Positions 2,837 to 33,989 of a stretch of DNA of 49,001 bases are shown in pieces. The stretch spans positions 24,858 through 73,858 of the forward strand of contig CAZTBN010000001.1 of NCBI GenBank assembly GCA_964611955.1, given 5' to 3'. The number at the start of each line of letters is the position of its first letter. Positions within the stretch are counted from its first letter, which is position 1. The DNA is from an uncultured Pseudomonadales bacterium. Lineage in GTDB: Bacteria; Patescibacteriota; Microgenomatia; UBA1400; PJMF01. The position numbers and the translations under genes are program-made. Below the pieces are notes generated by a model. The model had not been told where the DNA came from. It ran no database searches and saw only the letters and a list, made by a program, of their open reading frames with translations.

Positions 2837-3973
2837 TTAATTTAGGGCAGAACTATTGTCGGAATCAAAATGAGAATGGATAAATTCCTGAAAACTTTTG
2901 TGATTTCTGATGATGTAGACCCACTGATTATCAAATGGTTTGAGGTTTTTTGGATGTTCAATAACTCCGTTTGGATCATCTGGATAGATTGGTAAGGCTA
3001 AATTGTTAACAGTTATTTCTTTTTCATTACGCACTAACTTCACTGCCAATGATAACGTCTGCTGAATTGGAAAGTACTGTTCAACTCTATCTTGATAAAA
3101 TTTTAACAATAATCCACCAATTTCTGGTTGTTGCCAATATAAGCCGGGTTGTGATAATTTTTTAAGCAAAGCTTGAAAAACCTGTTGCTGTCGTTTGGAT
3201 CGAGCAATATCATCTCCCTCAGTTTCATTAAAGCTGTGACGACTGCGAATATACTTTAAAGCAGTTTCTCCATTCATCGTTTGTACTCCAGTGTTAAATT
3301 CAATGGTTTCGTAAAGCACAGCAGGATCTGTTTCAGTAGTAAGATCAACGTCATCTCTAGGAAACTGTTCATCAATAAAACCTGCTTCAACATTAATGGT
3401 CACTCCACCAACAATATCAATCAGTTTTTTTAAATCAGCTAAATAAATTACCAAACTCTGATCAATTTTGATCTTAGCTAATTCTTGCATTACTTCTTGA
3501 GGAAACTGTTGGGGAGAGGCAGGGTAACGGTCTTTACCATACTCATAAAGGGTATTAATTTTAGTTTTATAAGCATCGCTCCAAATATCTCTGGGCATAT
3601 TTAGTAAAGTGATCTGATTAGAATTTTTATTTACCCCAACTAACAACATGGTATCTGATAATTGGGGAGCATTAGGACGATTGGCAACATCATCCAGACC
3701 CAAAATTAAAAAGGTGGAATTAGTGTTATTGTTAGAGTCATTTGGTGACGTGAGCTGTTTAACAAGATTAACAACATCTGTGTGAGATAGTTCGGCAGCA
3801 GCTAAAAATCGCTGGTATTTGTGATAAATAATAGTGCCAAAAAAAATAACTGCAAAGAAAATTGCTCCGATATAAGCTATGAGCCCAATGAGTAAACCTC
3901 TTAAAAGGGTTTTTTGGTTTAAATTGCTCAACAAGGATGTGTTAGATTTTTGTATTTGCATAAAACTAATCAT
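2837..3973 (-). CDS. LytR-CpsA-Psr (LCP) family glycopolymer-to-cell-wall phosphotransferase
   Basis: N-terminal TM helix, then the LCP core blocks FLILGLDD, LSDTMLLVGV, LLNMPRDIW, ALKYIRSRHS and DIARSKRQQQVFQALLKKL. An alternative ATG lies at 3961. Confidence 0.85.
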   Translation of the reverse strand: MISFMQIQKSNTSLLSNLNQKTLLRGLLIGLIAYIGAIFFAVIFFGTIIYHKYQRFLAAAELSHTDVVNLVKQLTSPNDSNNNTNSTFLILGLDDVANRPNAPQLSDTMLLVGVNKNSNQITLLNMPRDIWSDAYKTKINTLYEYGKDRYPASPQQFPQEVMQELAKIKIDQSLVIYLADLKKLIDIVGGVTINVEAGFIDEQFPRDDVDLTTETDPAVLYETIEFNTGVQTMNGETALKYIRSRHSFNETEGDDIARSKRQQQVFQALLKKLSQPGLYWQQPEIGGLLLKFYQDRVEQYFPIQQTLSLAVKLVRNEKEITVNNLALPIYPDDPNGVIEHPKNLKPFDNQWVYIIRNHKSFQEFIHSHFDSDNSSALN

Positions 3974-4030
3974 TATCTTATCAAAAGTAACAGATGCAAG
4001 CTACACACACTAAGTGTTACAATATTTTTC

Positions 4031-5803
4031 ATGAATCAGTTTAGATTTTTATTGCAAAAAAAACAGCTGCAGTATTGGTTATTGTTGATTATTTTTTTAG
4101 TAGCATCTTGGCCATTATTAAAACCAGGAATGTTTAAAATTCATGATTTTACTCACGGAGCTCGAATTGCAGAAATGACTCAAGCTTTGCAAGATGGACA
4201 GTTTCCAGTACGCTGGACTCAGCATTTTGGGTTTGGTTATGGCATGCCCCTTTTTGAGTTTTATGCCCCCTTGCCTTTTTATCTAGGTAGTATTTTTTAT
4301 TGGTTATTTGGCAACTTATTAGGATCAGTTAAATTCATATTTTTACTGACTAATGGATTAAGTCTTCTAGGAGCGTATCTATTAGGCAAAAAACTATTTA
4401 AAACAGACTTGGCTGGTATAGTGACTAGTTTAACCTTTACACTAGCTCCTTATCGATTTTTAAATTTATATATTCGAGGAGCAGCTAGCGAACTCTGGGG
4501 CATTATGGCTCTGCCTTGGATTATTTGGTCAACTGTGAAACTGATTCATAAAGAAAAATGGAGTTGGTTGTGGAGTATTGTTAGTTGGAGTGTGTTGTTT
4601 CTAAGCCACAATATTTCCACCTTAATTTTTACTCCATTTATTTTTGTGTTAATAGGACTTTATCTCATGACTGTTTATTTCAACAAACAACTAAATTTTA
4701 AAGATATTTTAAAATTCATGACTGAGATCAGTACGTCTTTATTATTAGCCATTGGTCTGAGTTCTTTTTATTTAATACCTGCTTTTGTAGAAAAAGATTT
4801 AACCAAAGTCAGCGATTATATTTTGGGATATTACTTTAACTACAAGTTACATTTTTTATATATTAGACAATTTTTTAGACCTAACTGGAGTTTTGGTGGA
4901 AGCGAATGGGGGCCAGACGATCCCATCTCTTTTTTCTTAGGTTATGGTCAACTGTTAGTAATTGTCTTAATCATGATTGCTATCATTTTCATGATCAGAA
5001 AAACTGTGATATCTAAAAATAGATCAAATTTGATTCACTTAAGCTGGCCACTGGGTTTAATAGGCTTATTTTTCGCTTCATTAATCATGACTACTGAAAA
5101 ATCACAAGTGCTTTGGCATAATATTTCTTTATTAGAATTTGTTCAATTTCCATGGAGATTTTTAGGCATGTCTATTTTTATTTTGGCCTTATTGGCTGGT
5201 TGGCTTGTTCAATATAGTCAGCTGGTTTTACTTAAACTTAAAAAACAAACATTTTATTTTCTATTAGTAGGCACAATCCTAGTTTCCTTATTATTTAATC
5301 TTCGTTTTACTCAACCGGAAATGTTTATTGAAGATACGCAAGCAATCTATTATGCTAATCCAGCTAAAATAAGCCTAGAAATGAGTCAGATTTTACCTGA
5401 TTATTTGCCCCTCAGCTTGGAATCAAATATTCAACCGCCGCCTTCATTGATTGTTAAAGATTTAAGTTTTAGTGAGCAGGATTATGAAATTCTAGTTAAC
5501 CGCAGTCATGAAAAATTGATTAAATTTCACACTACCGAACCTTTAAAAATTAATGTGGCATTAGCTTATTATCCAGGATGGAAGGCTTGGAATGGTTTAA
5601 CTCCAACTAAACTTGCAGTTGCCAGCAATGGTACGATGTTAGTTAATTTGAATGAAGGAGATAATTTAATTGCTCTCAAATTTACTAATACACCTATTAG
5701 ATTATTAAGTGACCTAATCAGTTTGCTATCATTGTTAATTATTGGACTGCTTATTTTTATTAATCAAATTAACTATCAAAAACTCAGTGTTAATCAAAAC
5801 TAA
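4031..5803 (+). CDS. polytopic membrane protein, GT-C-like (COG5617 / PTPS-related membrane protein type), paralog of 22082-23761
   Basis: More than 10 predicted TM helices. N-terminal loop HDFTHGARIAEMTQALQDGQFPVRW...GYGMPLFEFYAPL, plus LSHNISTLIF and FVQFPWRFLG blocks shared with 22082-23761. The track start at 3950 overlaps the divergent LCP gene; the first ATG (MNQFRF) is at 4031. Confidence 0.6.
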   Translation: MNQFRFLLQKKQLQYWLLLIIFLVASWPLLKPGMFKIHDFTHGARIAEMTQALQDGQFPVRWTQHFGFGYGMPLFEFYAPLPFYLGSIFYWLFGNLLGSVKFIFLLTNGLSLLGAYLLGKKLFKTDLAGIVTSLTFTLAPYRFLNLYIRGAASELWGIMALPWIIWSTVKLIHKEKWSWLWSIVSWSVLFLSHNISTLIFTPFIFVLIGLYLMTVYFNKQLNFKDILKFMTEISTSLLLAIGLSSFYLIPAFVEKDLTKVSDYILGYYFNYKLHFLYIRQFFRPNWSFGGSEWGPDDPISFFLGYGQLLVIVLIMIAIIFMIRKTVISKNRSNLIHLSWPLGLIGLFFASLIMTTEKSQVLWHNISLLEFVQFPWRFLGMSIFILALLAGWLVQYSQLVLLKLKKQTFYFLLVGTILVSLLFNLRFTQPEMFIEDTQAIYYANPAKISLEMSQILPDYLPLSLESNIQPPPSLIVKDLSFSEQDYEILVNRSHEKLIKFHTTEPLKINVALAYYPGWKAWNGLTPTKLAVASNGTMLVNLNEGDNLIALKFTNTPIRLLSDLISLLSLLIIGLLIFINQINYQKLSVNQN

Positions 5804-7377: not shown

Positions 7378-8283
7378 ATGACACTTTCAGTTGCAATTAA
7401 CACCAAAAATGCTGCCCTTACTCTGGAAAAAACATTAAAATCAGTTAAGTTTGCTGATGAAATCGTGGTAGTGGATATGCATAGCACTGATAATACTGTG
7501 AAAATTGCGCAAAAATATACTGATAAAATTTTTCAATATAAAGATGTAGGTTTTGCCGATCCAGCTCGGAACTTCGCTTTTAGTAAAACCACTAGTGAGT
7601 GGATCTTAATGATCGATGCTGATGAGGTTTTAAGTCCTGGTCTTATTAAATATATTAAACAGGTTATTCAATCTAAGCAGGCTGCAGATATTTATTTAAT
7701 TCCTCGCCAAAACGTAATTTTTAATAAAAAAATGAAATATACAGGCTGGTGGCCAGATTATCAACCGCGTTTATTTAAAAAAGGTCATATAGATTGGCCT
7801 GATAAGGTTCATCAACATCCGGTATTAACTGGTAATGTTAAAAAAGTGACAGCGACTGAACAGCTAGCTATTCTCCATCTTAATTATCCAGATGTATCTT
7901 CATTTATTAGCCGTTTAAATCGTTATACCTCGCTTCAAGCTCATGAAGCCACTCATGGTTTTCCTGAAACTATTAATTCTGGAATCATTGTTAGTAATTT
8001 TTTTGATGAATTCTTTAAACGGTTTTTCGTTTTTTCTGGATTCAAAGATAACGTCGTTGGTACGGGCATGTCGTTTTTACAAGCTTGCTATGAGTTAGTG
8101 GTTAAACTGAAAATATGGGAGTTACAGTCATCTTCTCATACAGACCTTAGCACCATTGAGGTAATAAGGTCTTTAGAAAAATCACGCAATCATCTTAACT
8201 ATTGGTTAGCAGATTGGCATATTAAAAATTCTGTCGGTTTAAAACAAATCTATTGGAAAATTAGAAGAAAATTTCAGTTTTAA
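7378..8283 (+). CDS. family 2 glycosyltransferase, LgtF/WaaE-like subclass
   Basis: LSVAINTKNAA...EIVVVDMHSTDNTVKIAQKY...MIDADE. The C-terminal amphipathic tail has a KIWELQ motif shared with 9257-10090. Confidence 0.8.
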   Translation: MTLSVAINTKNAALTLEKTLKSVKFADEIVVVDMHSTDNTVKIAQKYTDKIFQYKDVGFADPARNFAFSKTTSEWILMIDADEVLSPGLIKYIKQVIQSKQAADIYLIPRQNVIFNKKMKYTGWWPDYQPRLFKKGHIDWPDKVHQHPVLTGNVKKVTATEQLAILHLNYPDVSSFISRLNRYTSLQAHEATHGFPETINSGIIVSNFFDEFFKRFFVFSGFKDNVVGTGMSFLQACYELVVKLKIWELQSSSHTDLSTIEVIRSLEKSRNHLNYWLADWHIKNSVGLKQIYWKIRRKFQF

Positions 8284-8285
8284 AT

Positions 8286-9227
8286 ATGTCTGAAGTCCAG
8301 CCATTAATTACTATCATTATTGTTAATTACGATACTACTAATTTAACTTTAGAGTGCCTGCAATCACTTTTGAAGTTAGAACGTGATGGTTTTCGCTATA
8401 ATATTTTGATAGTTGATAATGGTTCACAAAAAGAGTTCAAAATTCCCCATAAATTAAGTAGTCTTAAGCAAACTTATGCTGAATCGATTGACACGATTCG
8501 CACCGAAGCCAATATTGGCTTTACCGGAGGTAATAACTTAGGCATGAGTCATGCAGTCAAATTTTATAATCCTGATTATTTTTTGTTATTAAACTCCGAT
8601 ACCACAGTCACACCCAGTTTTTTAAAACATCTTTATCTAGGAATTCAGGGAGAAGATAGGGGGATTGCCACCAGTAAAATATATTTTGAAGCAGGTAAAG
8701 AGTTTCATCATCAGAGTTATAAAAAATCACAAAAAGGCAAGGTGATTTGGTTTGCTGGTGGTACAATTGACTGGCCTAATTTAATGGCTTTTCATCGTGG
8801 AGTGGATGAGGTTGATCGAGGTCAGTTTGATCAGTTAGCAACCACTGATTTTGCCACAGGTTGTTGTATGTTAATTAAACGAGAAGTTATAGAAAAAATA
8901 GGTATTTTAGACAAAAGATACTTTCTATATTTAGAAGATGTTGATTTTAGTATTAGAGCAATAAAAAAGGGTTATAGTCTTGTTTTTTGTCCACAAGCAG
9001 TAATATTTCATAAAAATGCAGGATCTTCTGGAGGAGCAGGTTCCGATATTCATTTATATTACCAAACTCGCAATAGATTATTGTTCTTTTTACAGCATGC
9101 TCGGTTAAGAATTAAAATTACTGCAATTCGTTATTTATTTAAACTATTAACTAGTAGTAGCTCTATTCAACGTCAGGCTGCTTTTGATTATATTATGCAG
9201 CGATTTGGCAAACAGCCAGTTATTTAA
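8286..9227 (+). CDS. family 2 glycosyltransferase, rhamnosyltransferase-like subclass
   Basis: ITIIIVNYDTTNLTLECLQSL, VDNGS, GFTGGNNLG, LLLNSDT, GCCMLIKRE, YLEDVDFSIRA. Confidence 0.85.
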   Translation: MSEVQPLITIIIVNYDTTNLTLECLQSLLKLERDGFRYNILIVDNGSQKEFKIPHKLSSLKQTYAESIDTIRTEANIGFTGGNNLGMSHAVKFYNPDYFLLLNSDTTVTPSFLKHLYLGIQGEDRGIATSKIYFEAGKEFHHQSYKKSQKGKVIWFAGGTIDWPNLMAFHRGVDEVDRGQFDQLATTDFATGCCMLIKREVIEKIGILDKRYFLYLEDVDFSIRAIKKGYSLVFCPQAVIFHKNAGSSGGAGSDIHLYYQTRNRLLFFLQHARLRIKITAIRYLFKLLTSSSSIQRQAAFDYIMQRFGKQPVI

Positions 9228-9256
9228 CTATCAGTTTTAAGTTATTATTAAAAGAT

Positions 9257-10090
9257 ATGGATCATAAAATTACAGCCATTATATTGGCTAAAAACTCAGC
9301 AGAGATTATTTCAAACTGTATTCAAACACTGACATGGGTTACTCAAATTTTAGTGATTGATACTGGTTCTGATGATAATACTACTGAAATTGCGGAAAGT
9401 CTGGGTGCTCAGGTGATTCATTTTGCCCATTCTTCATTTGCCAGACTTCGCAACGAAGCCTTAAGTCATGTTGACACTGATTGGTTATTTTATATCGATG
9501 CTGATGAGCGAGTCACTCCCACCTTAGCTAAAGAGATTTTAGTTCATATTGAAACTCAAGATGCAACTGTTCTTTCCATGATGAGACAAAATATCTGTTA
9601 CGGCCAAAAGTTTAACCATGGCGGTTGGAATGAGGATGAAGTGACTAGAGTTTTTAAAAAAGAAGCTTTAAAAAAGTGGGTAGGTAAAGTCCATGAAAGT
9701 CCAGAATATGAGGGTCAGGCTTTGCGTCTGCGCAGTCCACTGATTCATCTCACTCATCGCAACACTGTTGAGGGTTTGCAAAAAACTATTAATTGGACTC
9801 CTATTGAAGCAGAATTGCTTTTTAAGAGTAATTTACCCAGGGTGACCTTTGTCACCATTATTAGAAAAGGAGTCATGGAATTTTTACGCAGGGGCGTTTT
9901 TAAAAAAGGGTACCAGGATGGTATGCCTGGTGTCATCGAAGCTATTGTCCAAGGTATTAATAAAATGCTCATTTATATTCAAGTTTGGGAACTGCAACAA
10001 GCTCCACCCTTAGAGGAACAATATCACAAACAAGAAATAAAAATAGCTAAATTGTGGGAGGATGAGGATATCAAACACTTTAACTCTTAA
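9257..10090 (+). CDS. family 2 glycosyltransferase, LgtF/WaaE-like subclass
   Basis: ITAIILAKNSAE, LVIDTGSDDNTTEIAESLGA, YIDADE, KKGYQDGMPGV and QVWELQ. Paralog of 7378-8283 and 20242-21012. Confidence 0.8.
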   Translation: MDHKITAIILAKNSAEIISNCIQTLTWVTQILVIDTGSDDNTTEIAESLGAQVIHFAHSSFARLRNEALSHVDTDWLFYIDADERVTPTLAKEILVHIETQDATVLSMMRQNICYGQKFNHGGWNEDEVTRVFKKEALKKWVGKVHESPEYEGQALRLRSPLIHLTHRNTVEGLQKTINWTPIEAELLFKSNLPRVTFVTIIRKGVMEFLRRGVFKKGYQDGMPGVIEAIVQGINKMLIYIQVWELQQAPPLEEQYHKQEIKIAKLWEDEDIKHFNS

Positions 10091-10093: not shown

Positions 10094-11203
10094 ATGAAAA
10101 TTTGTTTATTCAGTCCTTATTTTCCAAACAATTTTGGAGGTGGCGAAAAGTATTTATTAGATGTCGCTCTGGCTTTTGCCAATGACAGTCATAATCAAGT
10201 CTTTTTAGCTATTGGAGGCTGTCGTAATCTGAGTCAAACTCAACTCAATACCATTAAATACACCTATTCCCAATTTATTAATAAATCATTAGCTAAAATT
10301 CAGTTTATCAATACCCCTTTAGGAACCAGTAAATTTTCTGTTGCTAAATTATTTTGGACTAAACAATTTGATGTGTTGTTTTATTTAACTGATGGGAGCC
10401 TTTTTTTCTCACTGGCACGTAAAAATATTTTACATATTCAAGTACCACTCAAGCTTGATAAATCATCTTTTCTGGAGCGACAAAAATTAAAAAATTGGCA
10501 GACTAAAATTACTAATTCTTATTTTACCAAAACAGTGATCGAGCCAACTTGGGAAACTAAAATTAATTATGTTCATCAACCCATGGTAGAGGCTAGTGAT
10601 ATTATTCAAGCTACAGATTTTCAATCGAAACAACCTATTATTATTAATGTTGGTAGATTTTTTCCCCAACTCCATAGCAAACGTCAAGACATTTTAGTCA
10701 AAATTTTTGCTAAATTATTAAGAAAATATAAAAAGGAAATGGTTGGTTGGAAATTGGTATTAATCGGTAGTGTGGAACATGAAGGCTATGCTCAATATGT
10801 TCATCAGCTAGCCAAAGGTTTACCTATTGAAATCTTGCATCATGTTAATCGGGCAGAGTTGATTCAAAAATTAACTCACAGTAGCATCTATTGGCACGGG
10901 ACTGGCTATCGAGTTAACGAGTTTGATCATCCTGAAAAACTTGAGCATTTTGGCATTACTACAGTAGAAGCCATGGCTGCTGGCAATGTGCCAGTGGTTT
11001 TAGGCAAAGGTGGCCAAGTTGAGGTCATTGGTAGCGGGTTTGCAGACTGGAGCTGGTTAACACAAAAAGATTGTATTAAAAAAACAGTTCAATTAGTGCG
11101 AAATCCAAGCCTACGATTAAAACTGCAACAACAAGCTCAACTTCAATCAAAACAATTTTCTGCTGAGGTTTTTATTCATAAATTAAATCAAATGCTTGCC
11201 TAA
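10094..11203 (+). CDS. family 4 (GT-B) glycosyltransferase
   Basis: N-terminal FSPYFPNNFGGGEKYLLDVA and C-terminal E-x7-E region EHFGITTVEAMAAGNVPVV. Confidence 0.8.
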   Translation: MKICLFSPYFPNNFGGGEKYLLDVALAFANDSHNQVFLAIGGCRNLSQTQLNTIKYTYSQFINKSLAKIQFINTPLGTSKFSVAKLFWTKQFDVLFYLTDGSLFFSLARKNILHIQVPLKLDKSSFLERQKLKNWQTKITNSYFTKTVIEPTWETKINYVHQPMVEASDIIQATDFQSKQPIIINVGRFFPQLHSKRQDILVKIFAKLLRKYKKEMVGWKLVLIGSVEHEGYAQYVHQLAKGLPIEILHHVNRAELIQKLTHSSIYWHGTGYRVNEFDHPEKLEHFGITTVEAMAAGNVPVVLGKGGQVEVIGSGFADWSWLTQKDCIKKTVQLVRNPSLRLKLQQQAQLQSKQFSAEVFIHKLNQMLA

Positions 11204-11205: not shown

Positions 11206-13695
11206 ATGACTCGTACTCTTCCTATCAGCATTGTTATTCCTACCTATAATGGTAAAAGACAGTTACAAAAAAATTTGTCTAGTGTAACTGCACAACTTAA
11301 GAAAAACGATGAACTATGTTTGGTTGACGATGCCAGTTCAGATAATACTCTGCAATATTTAAGTAAAAAATTTCATCTAAAATATGAGGCTTTAGGCGGA
11401 GATAAATTTGGTTCATTTGAGCTATATACCGGCAGTTTGCCCAATCAGGCACAAATCAAGGTCATTGTTAATTTAAACAATTTAAGATTTGCAGCGAGCG
11501 TTAATCGTGCTGTCGAGCAAATCAAACATGATTATTTTTTGTTAATCAATAATGATGTGGAGTTACTGACAGGAGCAGTAACTCAACTTCTGCAAAATTT
11601 TACTAAAAATGAATCATTATTTGCAGTCGGCTGTTTAGAAATCGAACCCAACCAAGACAATATTTTCGGAGGTAAGAACAGATTATTCTTTGAAAAAGGT
11701 TTATTCAGACATAACCGTGCTGAGGACTTTACTACTGGGGAAACCGCTTGGGCAAGTGGTGGTAGCGCCATGTTTGATCGAGCTAAATGGATTAAGCTTA
11801 ATGGCTTTGATCCAGATTTTTATCCAGCTTACTGGGAAGATGTTGATTTATCTTATAGAGCTAAACAACAAGGATGGCATGTTTTATTTGATCAGGATGC
11901 TAAAGTAATTCATAACCACGAATCAACCAATCTTGATGTCTTTGGTCAAAAAGAATTAGAAAAAATAAGTTGGCGCAATGGCCGTCGTTTTACTAAAAAA
12001 CATGCTACTTTTAAACAAAAGTTACAATATTACTGGTATAAACCTTACTGGAACTTAAAATTACTAAAACAGGGTTTACATTCTCAAGAAATTTTAGCAT
12101 TAATTGCAATTTTATTTTTAGCTACGGTGCTCAGACTGTATCAGTTGGGAATTGTACCCGCTGGTATGACTTGGGATGAAGCTGCTATTGGCTACAATGG
12201 CTACGGAGTCATTCAAACCAGAAGAGATGAATGGTTGCAAAAATTACCTGTTTCGTTTAAATCATTTGGCGATTACAAAGCACCAGCTGCTATTTATATC
12301 AATGGACTGTTTACCTCTATTTTTGGATTAAATTTAACTATTGTCAGGTTGCCCTTTGCTTTATGCGGAGTTTTAGCTGTTTGGGGCCTAATTAAATTCA
12401 CTTATGAGTTAGCCTTAATTCATTTTCCTCGTAATGTTAAAGGGAAAGGTTTGACTGCACGAGATCTATCTTTATTAGCTGGATTCATGCTGGCAGTCTC
12501 TCCCTGGCATTTACATTTAAGTCGCACCGGTTTTGAATCAAGCATGGCCTTAACTTTTATAATTTGGGGTTTTTATTTCTTGCTCTTATTTATCAAAAAT
12601 TTGTCAAGATTAACATTAACTCAACTACTTCAATATTTAATTCCAGCTGTTGTTTTGTTGGTATTGCCTTTATATACCTATCATAGTCCCAAAATTTTTA
12701 TTCCAGTTTTTATTATTATTTTTGCCCTGATTCATTTAAATTTGATTAAACGAAAATTAATTAATATCGCTGTTGGCATCTTTATGGGCATAATGCTACT
12801 GCTGCCTTTAATTAAAGATGCTGTGTTTAGTGAGGGGCTAACCAGATCTGGCAGCTTAATTTTATTTCAAAATAACTCATTGACTGGAATAATTGCTTTA
12901 TTAGGTAAAAATTTATTAGCTCATCTTTCACCAGCTTTTTTAGTGGGTGGCTGGACTGACAGCTTGCGTCATGGTGCTGGAACCTATGGAGTGCTTTATT
13001 TGCTTACCTTTCTTTTTTGTTTGATTAGCATTCTTGTATCACTTAATAAGAAAATTTTTAGAAATTACTGGTTGAAACTATCTCTAGTCTGGATTTTTTT
13101 AGGTTTACTCCCAGCGGTTTTAGGTGATACTTATCCTCAAGCTAATCGAGCTTTATTAGCTTTACCTGGTTTTATCTGGCTTTCCTTTATTGGCTTAAAC
13201 TGGTTAATTCTAAAACTTGCTCACAAAACTTCACCTTTCCAACTTTCTAAAACAACTATTTTTATCATTTTAGGCTTGATTTATTTAGCTAATATTGGTG
13301 CTTATCTAACTCATTATTATCATACCTTTGCTTTTCAAAGCGCTAGTGATTATCAAGAGGGATATATTGATGCGATGCAATTAGCATATGAATATGAAAA
13401 AGGTACCAATGGCAAACCCGAAGTTAATCAAATTATTGTTTCTACTCATTATGGTCAACCCTATATTTATGCTTTGTTTGTGCGCAAAACTAATCCTATT
13501 TGGTATCAAGGGGGTTCGCTGAATAAATATTTTTTTGTTGACCAAGTTAAGGAGTCAGACCTATTGAAAGATAATATTTTAGTCATTAGCACTGTAGAAC
13601 AATTAGTAAGCAGACAGCCAGATCATATTATTCATAGCACTGGAGGCTTAACCAGATTTAAAGTCTATTATACTGGCTATCATCATGACAATTAA
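11206..13695 (+). CDS. bifunctional fusion: N-terminal GT2 (GT-A) domain plus C-terminal ArnT/PMT-like GT-C membrane glycosyltransferase
   Basis: aa 1-~290: ISIVIPTYNGKRQL, LVDDASSDN, LLINNDVE, WEDVDLSYRA. From I296 (nt ~12091) there are many TM helices, with W-D-E at 12172-12180 and SFGDYK, HLSRTGFE and TYHSPKIF blocks shared with the next three GT-C genes. One uninterrupted 829-aa ORF. Confidence 0.8.
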   Translation: MTRTLPISIVIPTYNGKRQLQKNLSSVTAQLKKNDELCLVDDASSDNTLQYLSKKFHLKYEALGGDKFGSFELYTGSLPNQAQIKVIVNLNNLRFAASVNRAVEQIKHDYFLLINNDVELLTGAVTQLLQNFTKNESLFAVGCLEIEPNQDNIFGGKNRLFFEKGLFRHNRAEDFTTGETAWASGGSAMFDRAKWIKLNGFDPDFYPAYWEDVDLSYRAKQQGWHVLFDQDAKVIHNHESTNLDVFGQKELEKISWRNGRRFTKKHATFKQKLQYYWYKPYWNLKLLKQGLHSQEILALIAILFLATVLRLYQLGIVPAGMTWDEAAIGYNGYGVIQTRRDEWLQKLPVSFKSFGDYKAPAAIYINGLFTSIFGLNLTIVRLPFALCGVLAVWGLIKFTYELALIHFPRNVKGKGLTARDLSLLAGFMLAVSPWHLHLSRTGFESSMALTFIIWGFYFLLLFIKNLSRLTLTQLLQYLIPAVVLLVLPLYTYHSPKIFIPVFIIIFALIHLNLIKRKLINIAVGIFMGIMLLLPLIKDAVFSEGLTRSGSLILFQNNSLTGIIALLGKNLLAHLSPAFLVGGWTDSLRHGAGTYGVLYLLTFLFCLISILVSLNKKIFRNYWLKLSLVWIFLGLLPAVLGDTYPQANRALLALPGFIWLSFIGLNWLILKLAHKTSPFQLSKTTIFIILGLIYLANIGAYLTHYYHTFAFQSASDYQEGYIDAMQLAYEYEKGTNGKPEVNQIIVSTHYGQPYIYALFVRKTNPIWYQGGSLNKYFFVDQVKESDLLKDNILVISTVEQLVSRQPDHIIHSTGGLTRFKVYYTGYHHDN

Positions 13696-15307
13696 AAAAG
13701 AGGTTTTATTAACCTTTGTAATTCTGCTGCTGGCTTTGTTGATAAGAGGATTTAAACTCGGTAGTAATCCGCCAGGATTGTATTGGGAAGAAGTAGCTCT
13801 AGGATATGATGCCTATTCTATCTGGAAAACTGGAGCTGATCATCATGGCAATCCTTGGCCAATTGTGGCCTTTGAATCATTTGGAGATTGGAAGCCAAGT
13901 CTTTATTTTTATGTCACAGCCCCTTTTGTTGGTTTACTAGGATTAAACTCAGTAACTGTGAGATTGCCTTCATTAATTGCAGGCATGGCCATTGTTTACG
14001 GCGCAGGAGTGTTAGCTAATTTAGTTTTTAAATCATTAACTCAACAAAACAACCAAAAGATCAAACTACTTGGCATGTTGGTCACTGCCTTAAATCCTTG
14101 GGCTATACATTTTTCCAGAGCTGCCTGGGAAGTAAATCTGGCAACTGCCTTGATTCTCTGGGGAGTAATTAGCGGTTTATTATTTTTAAATTCTAACAAA
14201 ATAAAACATCTGATTTATTGTTCGTTCTTGTTAATTCTCTCTATGTATACTTATCATTCGGCCAGAATTTTAGCTCCAGTTTTAGGATTATCAATTTTAG
14301 TCTCCTTGGTAAGGAGTTTTAACAACTGGCCTCAACTTAAAAAGTATGTCATCACCAATCAATTATCGCTACTTGCTTTGCTGTTAATTAGCCTTATGGT
14401 CCTAGCCCCTTTAATAACAAATTTAACTAATAAATCCATAACTCAACGATTTGCTGAAACAAGTATTTTTTCTAACCTAGAGATCATTCAGCTGAGTAAT
14501 GATCAAAAAGAGTTTTTCAATAATTCATTGATCTCAAAGCTTATTTTTCATCGTTATTTATTGTTTGGCCGCGAAGTTGTTCATAATTTTTTGAGTCATT
14601 TTGATTTTAAATTTTTATTTGTGAGCGGAGATATAAATCCCAGACATTCAATCCAATCTTTTGCTCATTTTTACTATCTCGATCTTATATTTCTTTTAGC
14701 TGGAGCAATAGTTTTTTTAAAAAATAAAAAAAATCCAGTCATTTTGATTTTACTTACCTGGTTAATTATAGGTATTTTGCCAGCCTCAATTACAACCGGC
14801 TCTCCTCATGCTTTAAGAATCTTGCCCACCCTGCCGGTCTTTATTGTTTTAATCGTGCTAGGCATTACTTTGCTTTATAACGAGTTGAAAAAAATTATTG
14901 CTAAAAAATTTTTCAAAACATACCAATTAGGTTTTACTGTCGGTTTAGTTTTGGTCTATTTATTTTTCTTTAGTTGGTATTATCATGCTTTTATGCTAAT
15001 CTACCCAACTCAATATGCTTCAGAATGGCAGGCTCAATATCCGGCCTTAATTGCTCAAGTACAACAGCTACAAGCTCAGCAGCCTAATTCAGATATAATC
15101 ATCAGTAGAGAGTGGGGTAGACCAGCCATGTATTATTGGTTCTATACTCAAACTGATCCCAGAGAGGTTCAGGCAGTAGCCAAATCTGTTAAAAAAGATC
15201 AAGGAGAGTTCCTTGAGTTTAAACAGTTACAATTTACATCTCAGGGATTTTCTCAACCTAATATAATGGTACAACTTAAAGATGAAAATATTAACACAAC
15301 TAACTAA
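13685..15307 (+). CDS. ArnT/PMT-like GT-C membrane glycosyltransferase (paralog 2)
   Basis: GLYWEEVALGYDAY, ESFGDWKPSLYFY, HFSRAAWEVN, TYHSARIL, SPHALRILP; many TM helices. The ATG overlaps the upstream gene by 11 nt. Confidence 0.8.
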   Translation: MTIKKEVLLTFVILLLALLIRGFKLGSNPPGLYWEEVALGYDAYSIWKTGADHHGNPWPIVAFESFGDWKPSLYFYVTAPFVGLLGLNSVTVRLPSLIAGMAIVYGAGVLANLVFKSLTQQNNQKIKLLGMLVTALNPWAIHFSRAAWEVNLATALILWGVISGLLFLNSNKIKHLIYCSFLLILSMYTYHSARILAPVLGLSILVSLVRSFNNWPQLKKYVITNQLSLLALLLISLMVLAPLITNLTNKSITQRFAETSIFSNLEIIQLSNDQKEFFNNSLISKLIFHRYLLFGREVVHNFLSHFDFKFLFVSGDINPRHSIQSFAHFYYLDLIFLLAGAIVFLKNKKNPVILILLTWLIIGILPASITTGSPHALRILPTLPVFIVLIVLGITLLYNELKKIIAKKFFKTYQLGFTVGLVLVYLFFFSWYYHAFMLIYPTQYASEWQAQYPALIAQVQQLQAQQPNSDIIISREWGRPAMYYWFYTQTDPREVQAVAKSVKKDQGEFLEFKQLQFTSQGFSQPNIMVQLKDENINTTN

Positions 15308-17114
15308 CCTAATTAGTGATATTTCACAGTTTGATCAGTCTTTGATTAAGCTAGAACATCCTGCTAATCCAGAATTTGGAGATTATTCTACCAATATTGC
15401 TTTAACAACTTTTTCTAAATTAGATCAAGAGTTCATGAGTAGTCATAAACTCACCTCTGTCTTAGATTATGCTAACTTTTTACTGGAACAGCTAAAACAA
15501 GCTTTAGCTAAGCATGAAACTATAGCCCAACAGATAGAATCGGTGTCAATGATAAAACCTGGATTTATCAACTTCAAATTATCAACTCAATTTTTTAGTC
15601 AAGCTTTAGCTGAAGTTTTATCTAATTCTGATTATGGAAAAAGTAAGATCGGTCAGGGCATAACTTGGGAAATAGAACATACTTCTCCTAATCCCAATAA
15701 AGCTATGCACTTGGGTCATCTGCGTAATAACGTTACCGGCATGGCAATTGCTAGACTTTGGGAAGCGGTGGGTATTAAAGTAATTTGTGATGCGATTAAC
15801 AATGATCGGGGTATAGCTATTGCTAAATTAATGTGGGGTTATTTAAAATTTGCTAAAAAAAATGATCAGACTATCACTGATCTTCAGTATTGGTTTGATC
15901 ATCAACAAGAATGGCTTTCTCCTGAAGATCTAAACTTAAGTTCTGATAAATTTGTTGATCAACTTTATACTAAAGCAGCCCAGGATGTTGAGTCTGATAA
16001 AAGCGCAGAAACACAAGTAAGACAGATGGTCATTGATTGGGAAAATAAAGACAAACTAACTTGGGAGCTATGGAGAAAGGTTTTAGACTATTCTCTTAGC
16101 GGACAACAACAAACTCTTACCAGATTGGGCAACCGTTGGGATAAGATATGGCACGAGCACGAACACTACCAGCAAGGAAAAGATTTAGTGGCACAAGGAT
16201 TAAAGTTGGGGATTTTTAAGAAACTGCCTGATGGGGCAATTCTCACTGATCTGACCAAGTTTAATCTTCCTGACACAATTTTACAAAAAAGCGATGGCAC
16301 TTCCTTATACATCACTCAAGATCTTGCTTTGACTAAACTTAAAATTGCTGAGTTTAAGGCCAGTAAATTACACTGGGTGGTAGGGCCTGAACAAAGTTTA
16401 GCTCTTAAACAACTGTTTGCTGTTTGCGATCAGCTCAAAATTGCGAAATTTAAAACTCTGACGCACATAGATTTTGGTTACATGAGTATTAAAGGTGAGG
16501 GCAAGATGAGTTCCCGCTCTGGAAATGTAGTTTATGTTGATGATTTTATTGATGAAGTCAAGGCTAAAGTTAAACAGATACTCAATAATCAAGAGAATCA
16601 AACCTTTGATCCAATTGAGTTAGAAACTATTGCAGAAAAAATTGCTGTGGGGGCGGTTAAATACTCGATCTTAAAAATTGGTCGTAATACAGATACGCAG
16701 TTTGATTTTAAGACGGCGTTAAAAATAGATGGTAACTCCGGTCCTTATTTACAATACACTGTAGCAAGAGCTAAAGCTGTACTCAGAAAAGCAGCTATAA
16801 ATCATCAGGACTTGGTCGCTCAATTTTCTGCTTTAAAGCAAATGCAACTCAGTTCAGTTGAACTTAAAGTTTTAAAGCTTATTTATCAATTTCCAGAAAT
16901 TATTTTGTTTGCTGCTGATACCAATGAGCCTAGTGCTTTGGCTACTTATATCTATGAACTCGCGCAAAGTTTTAATAGTTTTTATAATCAAGAGCATATT
17001 CTTCAAGCTGCATCAGATCATAAAATTTTTAGGTTGGCTCTGGTTAAAGCTGTTGCTAGAATTTTAGAAACTGGATTAGCCATTCTTGGCATAGACACAC
17101 TAGCACAAATGTAA
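15282..17114 (+). CDS. argS: arginine--tRNA ligase
   Basis: Class I HIGH region HTSPNPNKAMHLGHLRNN, KMSKS-equivalent GKMSSRSG, and a DALR anticodon-binding-type C-terminus ending ...LGIDTLAQM. The N-terminal FGDYSTNIAL is typical of ArgS. Confidence 0.93.
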   Translation: MKILTQLTNLISDISQFDQSLIKLEHPANPEFGDYSTNIALTTFSKLDQEFMSSHKLTSVLDYANFLLEQLKQALAKHETIAQQIESVSMIKPGFINFKLSTQFFSQALAEVLSNSDYGKSKIGQGITWEIEHTSPNPNKAMHLGHLRNNVTGMAIARLWEAVGIKVICDAINNDRGIAIAKLMWGYLKFAKKNDQTITDLQYWFDHQQEWLSPEDLNLSSDKFVDQLYTKAAQDVESDKSAETQVRQMVIDWENKDKLTWELWRKVLDYSLSGQQQTLTRLGNRWDKIWHEHEHYQQGKDLVAQGLKLGIFKKLPDGAILTDLTKFNLPDTILQKSDGTSLYITQDLALTKLKIAEFKASKLHWVVGPEQSLALKQLFAVCDQLKIAKFKTLTHIDFGYMSIKGEGKMSSRSGNVVYVDDFIDEVKAKVKQILNNQENQTFDPIELETIAEKIAVGAVKYSILKIGRNTDTQFDFKTALKIDGNSGPYLQYTVARAKAVLRKAAINHQDLVAQFSALKQMQLSSVELKVLKLIYQFPEIILFAADTNEPSALATYIYELAQSFNSFYNQEHILQAASDHKIFRLALVKAVARILETGLAILGIDTLAQM

Positions 17115-17124: not shown

Positions 17125-18684
17125 ATGTTTAAAAAAATTTGCCCATTTTTTGTGTTAAATCTCTCAAGAAAAAATGTTGTGTGGATTATGCTAGCTTTTA
17201 TTTTGGTTGGCATAGCCTTTCGTATTTATAGATTTTCCCAGCAACCAACGGGTTTATATTGGGATGAAATCGCTATGGCAGTTGATGCCAGTGCTGTGAG
17301 TAAAACCGGCAATGATATGCACGGCCATCACTGGCTACAACCGATCTTTGTTTCTTATGGGGATTATAAACTACCAATTTATATTTGGTTATCATCTATT
17401 GTGGCCATGGTTAGTGCTAGCCCTGAAATAATTGCTAGACTACCTAGTTTAATTGCTGGGTTAGGCACGATTGCCATGACTGGCCTGATTGGCATTAAAT
17501 TATTTTCTCACTCTTCTCAAAGCAAAAATTATAAACTGTTAACTTTTATTAGCAGTGTTTTTATCATTGCTATTTCTCCAACTGCAATGCACTTTTCTAG
17601 AGTGGGATTTGAAGCTCATTTGGGACAGTTCATCCTTGCCATGGCTGTATATCTAGCATTATTTGCTAAACTCAGATGGCACATTTTGGCCCAAGTAATG
17701 GCTGTAATTGCCACTAATACTTATTATTCAATTAGATTTGTTTGGCCAATTATTTATTTACTGATTATTGTGCTTGATATACCTCAGTCATTACGTGACA
17801 CAGCGCTGACGCTAAAAAAAAGATGGTCATTTTTTGCTCAGGGTGCCATATTATTTTCTTTATATTGGCTGATGTTAATCCCAATGCAAAACTCTGTTTT
17901 TTATAATTCTATGCAGCAATTTCGCTTAGGAGCTGATTCAATTTTAACTGTTCAAGATTGGGCTGTGGAATCTAATCAATTGCGTGAAGAGGTAGGAAAC
18001 TCTTTTGTTTCCAGAATTTTTTATCATCGTGATTGGCTGATGTTGCGTCAATTTTTGAGCAACCTAAGTAATAATATGTCCTTAAATACTATTTTTATCA
18101 AAGCAGATAATAACTTAAGACATAGCAGCGGTAATCATGGTTTATTTTTTCTACCTTTTTTACCTATTTTAATTTGGGGATTATTCAAACTATTTGAGAA
18201 AAATAAACTAATTTTACTACTCTTAGTCTGTTGGTGGTTAGTTGGACTAGTACCAGCCTCAGTCCCGATGGAAACTCCCCATAGCTTGCGCTCTCTTAAT
18301 AGTTTAATTCCTTTATCATTAATGATTGCTTTTGGTTGGTTACAGCTTGTGGCACAGTTTTCAGTTAAACAGCTTGAGCAAAAAACTCTTTATTTTTTCT
18401 GGGGATTAGTTATTGCCTTACTGTTTAGCTTAATCTCTTTTTATCACTATTATTTTTATCTTTATCCCCTAAAATCAGCTGACTATTGGCAAACTGGATA
18501 CAAGCAAACAGCTCTTGAAACTTGTCAACAAGCTCAACAACAGCCTACTGTGTTAGTTAACCATCATGATCAAAGATTTTTTCTTTGGATATTGGGTTAC
18601 TGTTCTTTTTCTCAGAACTCGTTAGATGAAGCAATCTTTAAGGATTACCAGTTGCAACAACTAGAAAATATTAAGTTTCTATGA
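17125..18684 (+). CDS. ArnT/PMT-like GT-C membrane glycosyltransferase (paralog 3)
   Basis: GLYWDEIAMAVDAS, VSYGDYKLPIYIW, HFSRVGFEAH, TYYSIRFV, TPHSLRSLN; many TM helices. Confidence 0.8.
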   Translation: MFKKICPFFVLNLSRKNVVWIMLAFILVGIAFRIYRFSQQPTGLYWDEIAMAVDASAVSKTGNDMHGHHWLQPIFVSYGDYKLPIYIWLSSIVAMVSASPEIIARLPSLIAGLGTIAMTGLIGIKLFSHSSQSKNYKLLTFISSVFIIAISPTAMHFSRVGFEAHLGQFILAMAVYLALFAKLRWHILAQVMAVIATNTYYSIRFVWPIIYLLIIVLDIPQSLRDTALTLKKRWSFFAQGAILFSLYWLMLIPMQNSVFYNSMQQFRLGADSILTVQDWAVESNQLREEVGNSFVSRIFYHRDWLMLRQFLSNLSNNMSLNTIFIKADNNLRHSSGNHGLFFLPFLPILIWGLFKLFEKNKLILLLLVCWWLVGLVPASVPMETPHSLRSLNSLIPLSLMIAFGWLQLVAQFSVKQLEQKTLYFFWGLVIALLFSLISFYHYYFYLYPLKSADYWQTGYKQTALETCQQAQQQPTVLVNHHDQRFFLWILGYCSFSQNSLDEAIFKDYQLQQLENIKFL

Positions 18685-20231
18685 ACAAATTCTTAGCTTT
18701 AGTTTTAATTATCGTGATTGCAACTGTTTTAAGAGTTTATCAACTGGGTGCTAATCCCACTATTCTAAATCGAGATGAAGCTGCTATTGCTTATAATGCT
18801 TTGTTATTAAAATACTCAGGCCAGGATGAATGGCGACAATCCTGGCCCATAGCTTTTAAGTCTTTTGGTGATTACAAATTGCCTGGATACATCTACACCC
18901 TTTTACCATTTTTATTGATTCAGGAAAATGAGTTTATGGTTAGACTGCCCGCTGCTATAGCAGGAATTTTAATCGTCTTGATTACCTATAAAATTGGTCT
19001 TAGTTTGTTTGAAAAAAAATACGCATTACTGTTAAGTCTAGTGATTGCTTTGTCTCCATTTGCTATTTTTTATTCTAGAATGGCTTGGGAAGCCAACTTG
19101 GGCTTAATGTGGTCATTATTAAGTTTATACTTATTATTTTTTCATCAGCCTGGAAAAACTAAATTTAAGCTACATTCAGATATCATGGCTGTTTTAGCTG
19201 TAATTTTAGCAATAGTAACTTACAACACGCCTTTGATTTATTTGCCGATAGTAATTTTATTAGTGATCCTAACTAGAGTTAAATTATCTTATAAAGAGTT
19301 TCTCCCTTTAACAATTATTTTGAGCGGTATTTTGATATTTTTTTTAATTGCTTTTAATAATCTCAACTCTCAAAAAACTGGCATTATTATTTTTACTGAT
19401 CCGACAGTATGGCAACAGTATGTTGAGTACAGAAATAGCTTATCAAGCGCCTTAGTCCCTCTCTTTGGTAATAAATATGTTTATTGGTTAAAAATAATGA
19501 TAAATAATGTCATTAAAACTTTGTCCTATAAATTTTTAGTTTCAGCTGGAGGCTCACATCCTTGGCATCAAGTTCCAGGTTTTGGTCATTTATATAGCAG
19601 TATTTATTTTTTAGGCTTAGGCGGTATCTGTTTGAGCATTATCGATTTGATCAAAACAGCTAAAAAAGGGATTGAGCAAATTTTAACTGATAAAAAATTC
19701 AGTTTATTATTGCTGTTGGGTGCTGGCTTAATACCGTCGATCATAACCACTGATTCACCCCATGCCACAAGAAGTTTATTGTTTTTGGTTATTTTTACTG
19801 TCTTTTCAGTAATAGCATTAAAAAAAATAAATTATTTTATAAAAAAAGAAACTCTTGGAATTGCTCTTTTTTCATTAGTATTAGTTTTCCAAGCAGCGAT
19901 TTATCTTCATGCTTATTTTGTCAACTATCCTCAGCAACAATCGATCTTAAAACCTGGCTATGATCAAGCTATAATGAAACTGAACCATGCTACTAATCAA
20001 CCTGTTGTGGTGCAAGCTGACGGTTATCAATATATAGTCACCGCCTGGTATTTAAACATTAGACCAACTGATTTTTTTGAAACTGTACAAAGACAAGAAC
20101 CTGATACGGCTGGTTTATATTATGGTCGCAAGTTGATGAACTATGAGTTTGTGTCATCATTAGATAACTTGCCTGAAAATAGTATAATTCTATATTGGCA
20201 TTCACAAACTAACAGTTGGAATTACAAATAA
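18681..20231 (+). CDS. ArnT/PMT-like GT-C membrane glycosyltransferase (paralog 4)
   Basis: ILNRDEAAIAYNAL, FKSFGDYKLPGYIY, FYSRMAWEAN, TYNTPLIY, SPHATRSLL. ATGA start/stop overlap with the upstream paralog. Confidence 0.8.
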   Translation: MNKFLALVLIIVIATVLRVYQLGANPTILNRDEAAIAYNALLLKYSGQDEWRQSWPIAFKSFGDYKLPGYIYTLLPFLLIQENEFMVRLPAAIAGILIVLITYKIGLSLFEKKYALLLSLVIALSPFAIFYSRMAWEANLGLMWSLLSLYLLFFHQPGKTKFKLHSDIMAVLAVILAIVTYNTPLIYLPIVILLVILTRVKLSYKEFLPLTIILSGILIFFLIAFNNLNSQKTGIIIFTDPTVWQQYVEYRNSLSSALVPLFGNKYVYWLKIMINNVIKTLSYKFLVSAGGSHPWHQVPGFGHLYSSIYFLGLGGICLSIIDLIKTAKKGIEQILTDKKFSLLLLLGAGLIPSIITTDSPHATRSLLFLVIFTVFSVIALKKINYFIKKETLGIALFSLVLVFQAAIYLHAYFVNYPQQQSILKPGYDQAIMKLNHATNQPVVVQADGYQYIVTAWYLNIRPTDFFETVQRQEPDTAGLYYGRKLMNYEFVSSLDNLPENSIILYWHSQTNSWNYK

Positions 20232-20241: not shown

Positions 20242-21012
20242 ATGATTTCAGTAGTTTTAGCAACTCATAACGAGGAAAAAAATTTAGCCAGAGCTCTTGA
20301 TTCAATTAAACAGTTTGCTAACGAAATAGTAATTGTTGATGGTAATTCTACTGACAACACAGTTAAGATTGCTCAATCCTATCAAGCAGTGGTGCTTCAA
20401 ACTACCAACAAACCAATATTTCACATTAATAAACAACTAGCAATTGATCAAGCTAAAAATAACTTAATTTTGCAGCTAGATGCTGATGAAACTGTTGATC
20501 AAGAATTAGCAAAATTTATTATTGATTTAGACCAAAACTTAATGGTTCAGCCTTCAGCTGTTATAGATAGTGCTTGGTGGATTAGAAGAAAGAATAATTT
20601 TTTAGGACATTGGCTAAAAAAAGGTGGTCAATACCCAGACCCTGTGATCAGATTATTTATCAAAAATAAAGCCTTTTTACCTCAAAAAAGTGTGCATGAG
20701 CAAATGACCGTCAAGGGCAGTATCGGTTGGGCAACAGGACATCTCTGCCATTATTCCAATCCTACCTTAGCTGATTATTGGCGCAAATTACAAGCCTATA
20801 CTGCTCTGGAGGCTGATAAATTTTCTAAAACTAAGTTGACTGTGCCATTGGCTTTATACTACTTATTTATTAAACCAATTATCACTTTTTTAACTCTCTT
20901 TTTTAGACATAAGGGTTTTATAGATGGTATTTATGGATTCTTATTTGCTTTTTTAAGTGCTCTTCATTTTCCTATTATTATTTACAAAGTTATTAAACAA
21001 AAATTTTCATGA
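20242..21012 (+). CDS. family 2 glycosyltransferase, LgtF/WaaE-like subclass with a hydrophobic C-terminal tail
   Basis: ISVVLATHNEEKNL, IVIVDGNSTDNTVKIAQSY, QLDADE, RHKGFIDGIYGF. The C-terminus has two hydrophobic segments. Confidence 0.8.
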   Translation: MISVVLATHNEEKNLARALDSIKQFANEIVIVDGNSTDNTVKIAQSYQAVVLQTTNKPIFHINKQLAIDQAKNNLILQLDADETVDQELAKFIIDLDQNLMVQPSAVIDSAWWIRRKNNFLGHWLKKGGQYPDPVIRLFIKNKAFLPQKSVHEQMTVKGSIGWATGHLCHYSNPTLADYWRKLQAYTALEADKFSKTKLTVPLALYYLFIKPIITFLTLFFRHKGFIDGIYGFLFAFLSALHFPIIIYKVIKQKFS

Positions 21013-28862: not shown

Positions 28863-29003
28863 TCTAGCAAATAATTATACTTAAAACTATAATCTGATCA
28901 TTATTATGGTAGAACATAGTAAAATTAGAATCATGCTTTAAAAGTAATGCATTAAGTTACAGTTTTCTTATTTGATAGTTATCTAGTAGAATAGTGTTTA
29001 TTG

Positions 29004-33350: not shown

Positions 33351-33370
33351 GTTATTAACTATGTAAAATT

Positions 33371-33928: not shown

Positions 33929-33960
33929 AGTTAATAAAATTCAATTATTCTCAATTGTTA

Positions 33961-33989
33961 TTGTTAATACTATTTTGATACATTATAAT
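33961..33989 (+). promoter_or_regulatory. candidate sigma-70-type promoter upstream of the orphan region
   Basis: TTGTTA (33961-33966) - 17 nt - TATAAT (33984-33989), 30 nt upstream of the ATG at 34020. AT-rich context makes chance matches likely. Confidence 0.3.

Follow-up and report, generated by a model that had tools for sequence, protein, structure and literature searches.

A recurrent GT2–GT-C fusion in an envelope-glycan operon of Patescibacteria: a two-sided, probably bifunctional glycosyltransferase

One reading frame for a GT2 and a GT-C domain

The stretch of DNA analysed here (hereafter the window) comprises 49,001 nucleotides (nt) of contig CAZTBN010000001.1, which is titled uncultured Pseudomonadales bacterium, and it carries on its forward strand a gene of 829 codons plus stop (11206..13695, ATG start) whose product joins a family 2 glycosyltransferase (GT2) of the GT-A fold to a polytopic membrane glycosyltransferase of the GT-C class. 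The start codon is located 3 nt downstream of the stop codon of a gene for a family 4 glycosyltransferase (GT4), and the last 11 nt overlap the start of a further GT-C gene (13685..15307). At a GC content of 34.6%, an open reading frame (ORF) of 829 codons is not expected by chance. An initial annotation, made from the DNA letters alone, had assigned both domains to this single ORF, and the ORF, the motifs and the predicted folds bear this out. Likewise, all landmarks it had quoted could be located, namely the four GT2 motifs IVIPTYNG (residues 9-16), LVDDASSDN (39-47), INNDVE (113-118) and WEDVDLSYRA (210-219), residue I296 (nt 12091) and W323-D324-E325, which is encoded by TGG-GAT-GAA at 12172-12180.

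The GT2 catalytic domain spans residues 8-250 (11227..11955, + strand, as for all features of this gene), as delimited by Pfam, the predicted fold and an alignment with WbbL. It matches PF00535 (73 bits at a cut-off of 23.3, 3.6e-20, residues 8-192) and PF13641 (5.3e-11, residues 81-248), and its model, with a predicted local distance difference test (pLDDT) score above 90, has its best Foldseek matches among GT-A enzymes, i.e. ppGalNAc-T2 (1.3e-9) and WrtF; the model also shows an additional beta-sheet inserted around residues 138-171. Six residues of the domain (D42, N115, D117, E211, D212 and D214) are invariant in 57 fused proteins. They fall into three motifs: the aspartate pair D41-D42 of the nucleotide-binding motif LVDDAS (11326..11331), in which D41 is at least 90% conserved; N115-N116-D117 in the DxD position (11548..11556); and the invariant W210-E211-D212-V-D214 or 'WEDxD' (11833..11847), a putative catalytic-base motif, which aligns with WbbL and, weakly, with the GG..GF..ED region of beta4GalT1. 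Two long basic helices, recognized from the model, the charge and the alignment, end the GT2 part (residues 242-266 and 269-291, 11929..12078) and also occur in stand-alone GT2 orthologues. The region in front of the first transmembrane helix (TM1), residues 250-293, carries a net charge of +6.6 across the 57 sequences.

For the C-terminal half, direct sequence searches were largely silent. Taken alone, it matched nothing in Pfam, NCBIfam or the PDB, the latter searched with the single sequence as well as with a 60-sequence profile. PMT_2 (PF13231) did not match the fusion protein even at E <= 10, nor did PF02366 or MIR; there was no NCBIfam match to ArnT, hhalign gave a probability of 0.3% against E. 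coli ArnT, and neither hhalign nor hmmsearch of the C-terminal domain against E. coli ArnT and YfdI returned a signal. Because these searches gave no real match, we took the GT-C class from the relatives and from the predicted fold. PMT_2 matches 41 of 60 relatives of the GT-C half at about 45% identity (best 9.7e-11), PF02366 matches two of the 60, and the product of the next gene, 13685..15307, is a paralogue with 29% identity (E 5e-39). An AlphaFold2 model of the C-terminal domain (pLDDT 91.5, predicted template modelling score (pTM) 0.93) retrieved GT-C enzymes throughout its first 30 Foldseek matches against the PDB, including AglB (1e-7), yeast and human STT3, ArnT (TM 0.54/0.54), Pmt4, ALG12, ALG9, AftA, AftB and PimE. 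The separate model was needed for this comparison, as the Foldseek output for the full-length protein is dominated by redundant ppGalNAc-T entries. Judged from model and relatives, the C-terminal half classifies as a GT-C enzyme of the ArnT/PMT/STT3 structural class outside every characterised family. The earlier designation as a full GT-C paralogue therefore holds with regard to the paralogue, the PMT_2 matches of the relatives and the fold, whereas the half on its own resembles no Pfam, NCBIfam or PDB sequence.

The GT-C membrane domain covers residues 294-711 (12085..13338) with 11 predicted transmembrane helices according to the models, Foldseek and charge, and is followed by an alpha/beta domain (residues 712-829, 13339..13692), which models and charge predict to be extracytoplasmic. 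Invariant in the 57 fused proteins are D324, E325, D341, E342, R381, Y492, H493 and R547, with R440 and H437 conserved to at least 90%; in 60 mostly stand-alone sequences, the invariant residues include E325 and D341, and conservation of D324 and E342 is at least 90%. Two acidic motifs thereby mark the first extracytoplasmic loop, W323-D324-E325 (12172..12180), which contains the putative catalytic acid pair and which we liken to the 'DE' motif of PMT enzymes, and D341-E342-W343 (12226..12234). The oligosaccharyltransferase motif WWDxG was found in none of the 57 family members. Judged from these conserved residues, both domains look active.

The full-length model (pLDDT 92.8, pTM 0.90) shows, in this order, the GT-A domain, the helices 242-266 and 269-291, eleven membrane helices and the C-terminal alpha/beta domain. 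The GT-C domain is predicted with its N-terminus inside and its C-terminus outside. Lysine and arginine reach a density of 0.25 per residue in the putative cytoplasmic loops of the 57 sequences, compared with 0.07 in the putative outer ones, and a signal-peptide-like N-terminus is absent. This charge bias would place the GT2 domain in the cytoplasm and the loop with D324-E325 and D341-E342, together with the C-terminal domain, outside; in solved GT-C enzymes, the acidic loop and the C-terminal domain are likewise outside. The proposal of a cytoplasmic GT2 linked to a GT-C enzyme acting on the outer face is hence compatible with the basic linker, the loop charges and the outer position of D324-E325. 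With regard to the model, a pTM of 0.90 implies that the two domains are positioned relative to each other with confidence.

The earliest in-frame ATG, GTG or TTG past codon 230 is a GTG at codon 308 (nt 12127), followed by a TTG at codon 314 and an ATG at codon 321. Because this first candidate lies inside TM1, in its second half, the GT-C half has no start codon that would give a complete first helix, and the earlier claim that no in-frame start exists between the GT2 tail and the middle of TM1 is confirmed. Furthermore, residues on both sides of the junction are conserved in one and the same frame among 57 orthologues, i.e. K265, Q271, P280 and W282 before it and R310, P318, G320, D324 and E325 after it.

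Recurrence of the fusion and its split relatives

A search for the same architecture, which had been suggested as a check, returned about 57 protein clusters that represent full-length fusions (36-57% identity, 99% query coverage, 790-890 aa), all of them from Patescibacteria-type metagenome bins; the relatives belong to metagenome-assembled genomes of Woesebacteria, Pacebacteria and Microgenomates. In a library with one representative for each cluster at 50% identity, the best 150 include about a dozen full-length fusions, the rest being mostly stand-alone GT-C proteins. A scan with one genome per species yielded 471 related loci, the best 80 of which were split using separate hidden Markov models (HMMs) for the two halves. 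The two domains are fused in 30 of these 80 loci, while 31 encode a GT2 of about 290 aa directly before a GT-C protein of about 540 aa, 13 have the two genes separated by 1.1-3.7 kb, five show the GT-C gene alone in view and one (L047) is truncated by the contig end. The pairing of GT2 and GT-C and the gene order around the pair are conserved in 74 of the 80 loci. From this we conclude that the fusion is the minority state of a widespread gene pair, which fits the expectation that GT2 and GT-C steps are normally carried out by separate polypeptides.

The alignment with the split relatives locates the junction to residues 283-295 (12052..12090), between a conserved P-Y-W motif (280-282) and TM1. 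The split loci run through this motif and five further residues (PYWxxxxx) into a stop codon, after which the start codon of the GT-C gene leads via a short stretch, M(x)n, into TM1, so that the stop and start codons lie at the junction itself. The fused sister loci continue uninterrupted through it, with a linker of 10-15 residues. Seen in this alignment, the event looks like an end-to-end fusion through loss of a stop codon. A neighbour-joining tree of the GT-C halves, which carries no support values, distributes the fused forms over at least five clades, with split forms in between. Stop-codon read-through or recoding in the split relatives was considered and rejected: 12 of the 31 adjacent pairs are in frame, which is about the one-third expected by chance, and each split GT-C gene has its own start codon right after the stop.

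One locus of an otherwise fused clade (L031, 462-2944) has the pair split by a frame change with an overlap of 124 nt; the split reflects a recent fission event or else a frameshift introduced by sequencing. Many related contigs (e.g. L001-L005, L058 and L066) bear titles such as 'uncultured Pseudomonadales bacterium', 'Vitreimonas sp.' or 'Methylococcaceae bacterium', and their gene content matches that of the Patescibacteria loci; the respective bins are probably mislabelled or mis-binned.

Class of the GT2 domain and operon context

The question of which kind of GT2 is fused matters, as its class decides the mechanism. Among NCBIfam models, full-domain alignments were obtained with EpsD, PgaC, MftF and arsenosugar-type enzymes, and the polyprenyl-phosphate sugar synthases ArnC and PgfS cover residues 7-54 alone. 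A profile of residues 62-295 matched DPMS (5mlz) around the DxD region only, in addition to the weak beta4GalT1 alignment. For a direct comparison with the family HMM, reference proteins were translated from E. coli K-12, with WbbL reconstructed across its IS5 insertion. WbbL scored 32.4 bits over HMM positions 96-243, the half reaching from DxD to ED, with an hhalign probability of 95%, while the alignment with E. coli ArnC was limited to positions 4-62 and GtrB reached 6.8 bits. Within the window, the same HMM gave 58-75 bits on the GT2s at 8286, 36553 and 41989 and 10-17 bits on those at 7378, 9257 and 20242. The rhamnosyltransferase model TIGR01556 scored 50-66 bits on 8286, 36553 and 41989, well under its cut-off of 200.55 bits, and was not listed for the fusion GT2 at E <= 1. 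Moreover, the fusion GT2 carries NND in place of the DAD that we take to be typical of DPM1- and GtrB-type enzymes. By these comparisons, the fusion GT2 classifies as WbbL-like and outside the polyprenyl-phosphate-sugar-synthase class. The initial annotation had noted as a caveat that this domain resembles rhamnosyltransferases, akin to 8286, 36553 and 41989, which the 58-75-bit scores and the WbbL alignment corroborate.

A separate ArnC/DPM1-like GT2, with at least 150 ArnC residues aligned, is encoded in 10 of the 80 loci, nine of these scoring 49-75 bits; the best one covers ArnC residues 3-227. These proteins carry TDSD or TDGD followed by LQF and are candidate polyprenyl-phosphate sugar synthases without membrane helices of their own. 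In the lineages that encode them, a canonical enzyme is thus available as a candidate for making the donor. They are short (about 230-250 aa) and soluble and are found near the operon in L017, L018, L019, L022, L023, L024 and L027 (there on the opposite strand) as well as in L028 (2336-3016) and L072 (2316-3008). In the 49-kb window itself, ArnC alignments do not extend beyond about 115 residues for any ORF, and no ArnC/GtrB/DPM1-type GT2 is present; a GtrA-like flippase was searched for in the same 49 kb and none was found. Among the GT2s of the window, hydrophobic C-terminal helices (residues ~199-251) occur only in the one encoded at 20242..21012; as a paralogue of 7378 and 9257 with a poor ArnC alignment (7.6 bits), it is a doubtful candidate for a membrane-bound donor synthase. 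A processive synthase, as hinted at by PF13632 (1.4e-4, below the cut-off), was rejected for the fusion protein, given that the split GT2 orthologues have no membrane channel of their own and that the C-terminal domain keeps the GT-C catalytic-loop residues.

The fusion gene is part of an operon with the order GT2 7378, GT2 8286, GT2 9257, GT4 10094, the GT2/GT-C pair, and the GT-C genes 13685, 17125 and 18681, and for most members order and strand are kept in 48-67 of the 80 loci. The three upstream GT2 genes (7378..10090, +) are found in the same strand and order in 56-65 loci, and the paralogous GT-C gene 13685..15307 (+) follows immediately downstream in 59. The GT4 gene (10094..11203, +; Glycos_transf_1 according to Pfam) is linked to the pair in yet another way. 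In three loci, L011 (4765-6804), L028 (4849-6942) and L072 (4765-6930), and in the protein clusters P0238 and P0239, the GT4 orthologue precedes the GT2 within one fused polypeptide; these proteins have 680-723 aa, their GT4 part is 39-44% identical to the GT4 of the window (E 1e-98 and 6e-74), and the GT-C protein is encoded by a separate gene downstream. Because GT4 is fused to GT2 in other lineages, we regard GT4, GT2 and GT-C as a conserved module, and such alternating fusions are what would be expected of enzymes working side by side.

With two more paralogues of the same subfamily at 17125..18684 and 18681..20231 (both +), four such GT-C genes stand in a row from 11206 to 20231, i.e. the C-terminal half of the fusion, 13685, 17125 and 18681, with family HMM scores of 266, 151 and 171 bits for the latter three. 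The row is interrupted by a gene for arginyl-tRNA synthetase (15282..17114). In the first outer loop, 13685 has W-E-E and the other paralogues W-D-E.

The window further encodes RmlB-like and RmlD proteins (dTDP-rhamnose), ManC, a Bac_transf initiating transferase, several GT4s, a LytR-CpsA-Psr (LCP) ligase, two Wzx-type flippases, a Wzy_C (Wzy-like) protein and further GT-C genes at 3950, 29001 and 39303 along with a PIG-V-like one at 23740. Judged from its gene content, it constitutes a large envelope-glycan locus. The density of GT-C-type genes is very high, with at least eight GT-C-like genes in 49 kb. Polytopic glycan enzymes of other subfamilies are encoded at 3950..5803 (PTPS_related/PMT_2), 22082..23761 (an unassigned membrane protein of 559 aa), 23740..24900 (PIG-V-like), 29001..30542 (PMT_2), 37582..39303 (Wzy_C) and 39303..40775 (PMT). 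The LCP ligase gene (2837..3973) is located at the left edge of the locus on the opposite strand, and an ORF beyond Bac_transf (46951..49001) is cut off by the right end of the window; its product has an N-terminal membrane helix and a length of at least 683 aa. Amid the glycan genes lie ruvC, ruvA and ruvB (32832..35925), with a gap of 980 nt between ruvA and ruvB (33929..34908) that contains short unassigned ORFs alone.

Proposed function and comparison with known systems

Starting from the fusion and its conservation, the two folds, the class of the GT2, the gene neighbourhood and the charge-based topology, we propose substrates, an order of steps and a complex, all of which are to be read conditionally. 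Encoded in a conserved cell-envelope glycan operon of Patescibacteria, the gene product would be a two-sided and probably bifunctional glycosyltransferase. On the cytoplasmic face, the WbbL-like GT2, working beside the GT4, would lengthen a polyprenyl-linked glycan intermediate at the expense of a nucleotide sugar. Its two basic C-terminal helices appear to lead directly into TM1 of the 11-helix GT-C domain. With its acidic D324-E325 loop and its C-terminal domain facing outward, the GT-C enzyme would glycosylate the product of the same pathway, drawing on a polyprenyl-phosphate-linked donor that has been flipped. The fusion presumably originated by loss of a stop codon between two adjacent, translationally coupled genes and may have been gained, or reversed, several times. 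Most likely it fixes a pre-existing complex, in which the GT-C protein would anchor an otherwise soluble GT2 at the membrane. That a glycan-extending cytoplasmic GT2 is tethered in this way to an outer-face GT-C enzyme of the same pathway, with the fusion freezing the complex, is the reading we prefer, with a probability of roughly 55%. The fusion of the same GT2 to the GT4 in other lineages is as expected for a glycan-extending enzyme. The lactococcal pellicle offers a parallel, as its cytoplasmic transferases extend an oligosaccharide linked to polyprenyl monophosphate, which is later used outside by GT-C enzymes (PMC10821137).

Several points weigh against this proposal. None of the sequences in the family appears to belong to a protein with a known substrate, product or activity, and the window lacks a canonical polyprenyl-phosphate-sugar synthase as a source of the GT-C donor. 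The interface between the two domains is suggested by the pTM of the model alone, the clade count depends on a neighbour-joining tree without support values, and the locus counts cover the best 80 of the 471 related loci. In addition, a merger of adjacent genes may be almost neutral to selection and does not have to imply that substrates are channelled.

The last point leads to the possibility, which we consider rather unlikely, that the GT-C domain serves as an anchor or scaffold alone, so that a soluble GT2 is tethered while its active site and that of the GT-C domain serve unrelated steps or substrates, or the fused GT-C domain is non-catalytic. Most relatives are unfused, and because the genes are separate in them, by 1-3.7 kb in 13 of the 80 loci, the covalent linkage is dispensable; moreover, the loss of a single stop codon suffices for the fusion, which has happened repeatedly, as fits a low-cost event, and split or fused pairs of a catalytic subunit and an anchor are known from Alg13/Alg14 (PMC4973528) and Ppm1 (PMC3485146). 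However, the GT-C catalytic-loop residues are invariant in the fused forms and invariant or at least 90% conserved in the mostly stand-alone ones, pairing and gene order persist in 74 of the 80 loci, and the modelled pTM of 0.90 suggests a defined arrangement of the domains.

A further alternative, a self-supplying module, appears improbable. Here, the GT2 would make a polyprenyl-phosphate sugar or a short oligosaccharide donor inside, which its own GT-C domain and the downstream paralogues would use outside. DPMS and GtrB have a layout of a catalytic domain, interfacial helices and then membrane, to which the catalytic domain, the two basic interfacial helices and the membrane domain of the fusion protein correspond. 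The conserved position of the GT2 immediately before a row of up to four GT-C paralogues and the lack of any ArnC/GtrB/DPM1-type GT2 and GtrA-like flippase in the 49 kb point in the same direction, and the D1-D2 arrangement of Ppm1 in M. tuberculosis compared with Ppm2/Ppm1 in M. smegmatis provides a precedent (PMC3485146). Against this stand the alignments of ArnC, GtrB, DPMS and PgfS, which are confined to the generic nucleotide-binding part, the presence of NND rather than DAD, and the WEDxD motif, which WbbL- and beta4GalT-type enzymes also have; an ArnC-like GT2 aligning over ArnC residues 3-227 is encoded separately in related loci, and in other lineages the same GT2 is joined to the cytoplasmic GT4. 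The initial suggestion that the GT2 makes the donor for its own GT-C, in the manner of ArnC/ArnT or GtrB/GtrC, thus finds no support in the form of full-domain similarity to ArnC, GtrB or DPMS, and the separate ArnC/DPM1-like GT2 in 10 of the 80 loci and the GT4 fusions weaken it further. Recruitment of a WbbL-type GT2 as the maker of a polyprenyl-phosphate-linked donor, be it a monosaccharide or a short oligosaccharide assembled on the monophosphate carrier, and its physical coupling to the consuming GT-C domain have a low probability in our view. If true, the protein would be a self-contained, membrane-spanning unit that makes and uses its donor, and the GT-C bundle might even help to pass the lipid-linked sugar across.

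Finally, short A-runs in the linker DNA and the frame change in L031, which indicates that frame errors or changes do occur in the family, could speak for a sequencing or assembly indel near 11950-12200 that merged two genes, but such an artefact has a negligible probability given the same uninterrupted architecture in 30 independent species-representative genomes and about 57 protein clusters, the residues conserved in one frame on either side of the junction and the lack of a start codon for a separate GT-C protein, so that the original view of a true fusion stands.

The tethering of a glycan-extending GT2 to an outer-face GT-C enzyme would be informative beyond this locus. Patescibacteria contain large uncharacterised expansions of GT-C enzymes, and the main value of the fusion is that it provides a pairing clue for such orphans; the alternation of GT4-GT2 and GT2-GT-C fusions shows which cytoplasmic transferases partner which outer-face transferase. 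A single polypeptide with an active site on each membrane face would also be convenient for studying how the inner and outer steps of envelope glycan assembly are organised. Both domain families, bifunctional glycosyltransferases and fused or split pairs of catalytic and anchoring parts are already known. In the literature covered, which excludes most subscription journals, no description of a GT-A-GT-C fusion with an active site on each membrane face was found. The architecture is uncharacterised but has already been annotated automatically in databases, where some members bear the JGI label 'GT2 family glycosyltransferase/4-amino-4-deoxy-L-arabinose transferase-like glycosyltransferase'.

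Compared with known enzymes, the fusion GT2 shares with WbbL-type GT2s the GT-A fold, the N-terminal nucleotide-binding motif, a single-Asp 'xxD' and '(W/Y)xEDxDL', and differs from them in that TIGR01556 is not reached and in its insertion at ~138-171, its basic C-terminal helices and the joined GT-C domain. The GT-C half has the predicted fold of the ArnT/PMT/STT3-AglB class, with the N-terminus inside, a long acidic first outer loop and an extracytoplasmic C-terminal domain. However, it has no significant sequence match to the solved GT-C enzymes or E. coli ArnT and no WWDxG or MIR, it carries a GT2 at its N-terminus, and its helices number 11 instead of 13, as counted from the model. Co-encoded pairs of a cytoplasmic GT2 and an outer GT-C enzyme that operate with polyprenyl-linked sugars are known from GtrA/B/C, ArnC/ArnT, CsbB/YfhO, GacI/J/K/L and WpsA/B/G/J (PMC10821137). 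From these three- and four-component systems the fusion differs by the class of its GT2, by the lack of a GtrA-type flippase in the window and by being a single polypeptide. The closest parallel in terms of fusion state is Ppm1 (Rv2051c) of M. tuberculosis, in which a membrane domain D1 is fused to a GT2 domain D2, while elsewhere the two are encoded by adjacent genes whose products interact (PMC3485146). In both cases species differ in whether the soluble GT2 and its polytopic membrane partner form one protein or two, but the membrane domain of Ppm1 is not a GT-C domain and precedes the GT2, which in Ppm1 is a DPM1-type donor synthase.

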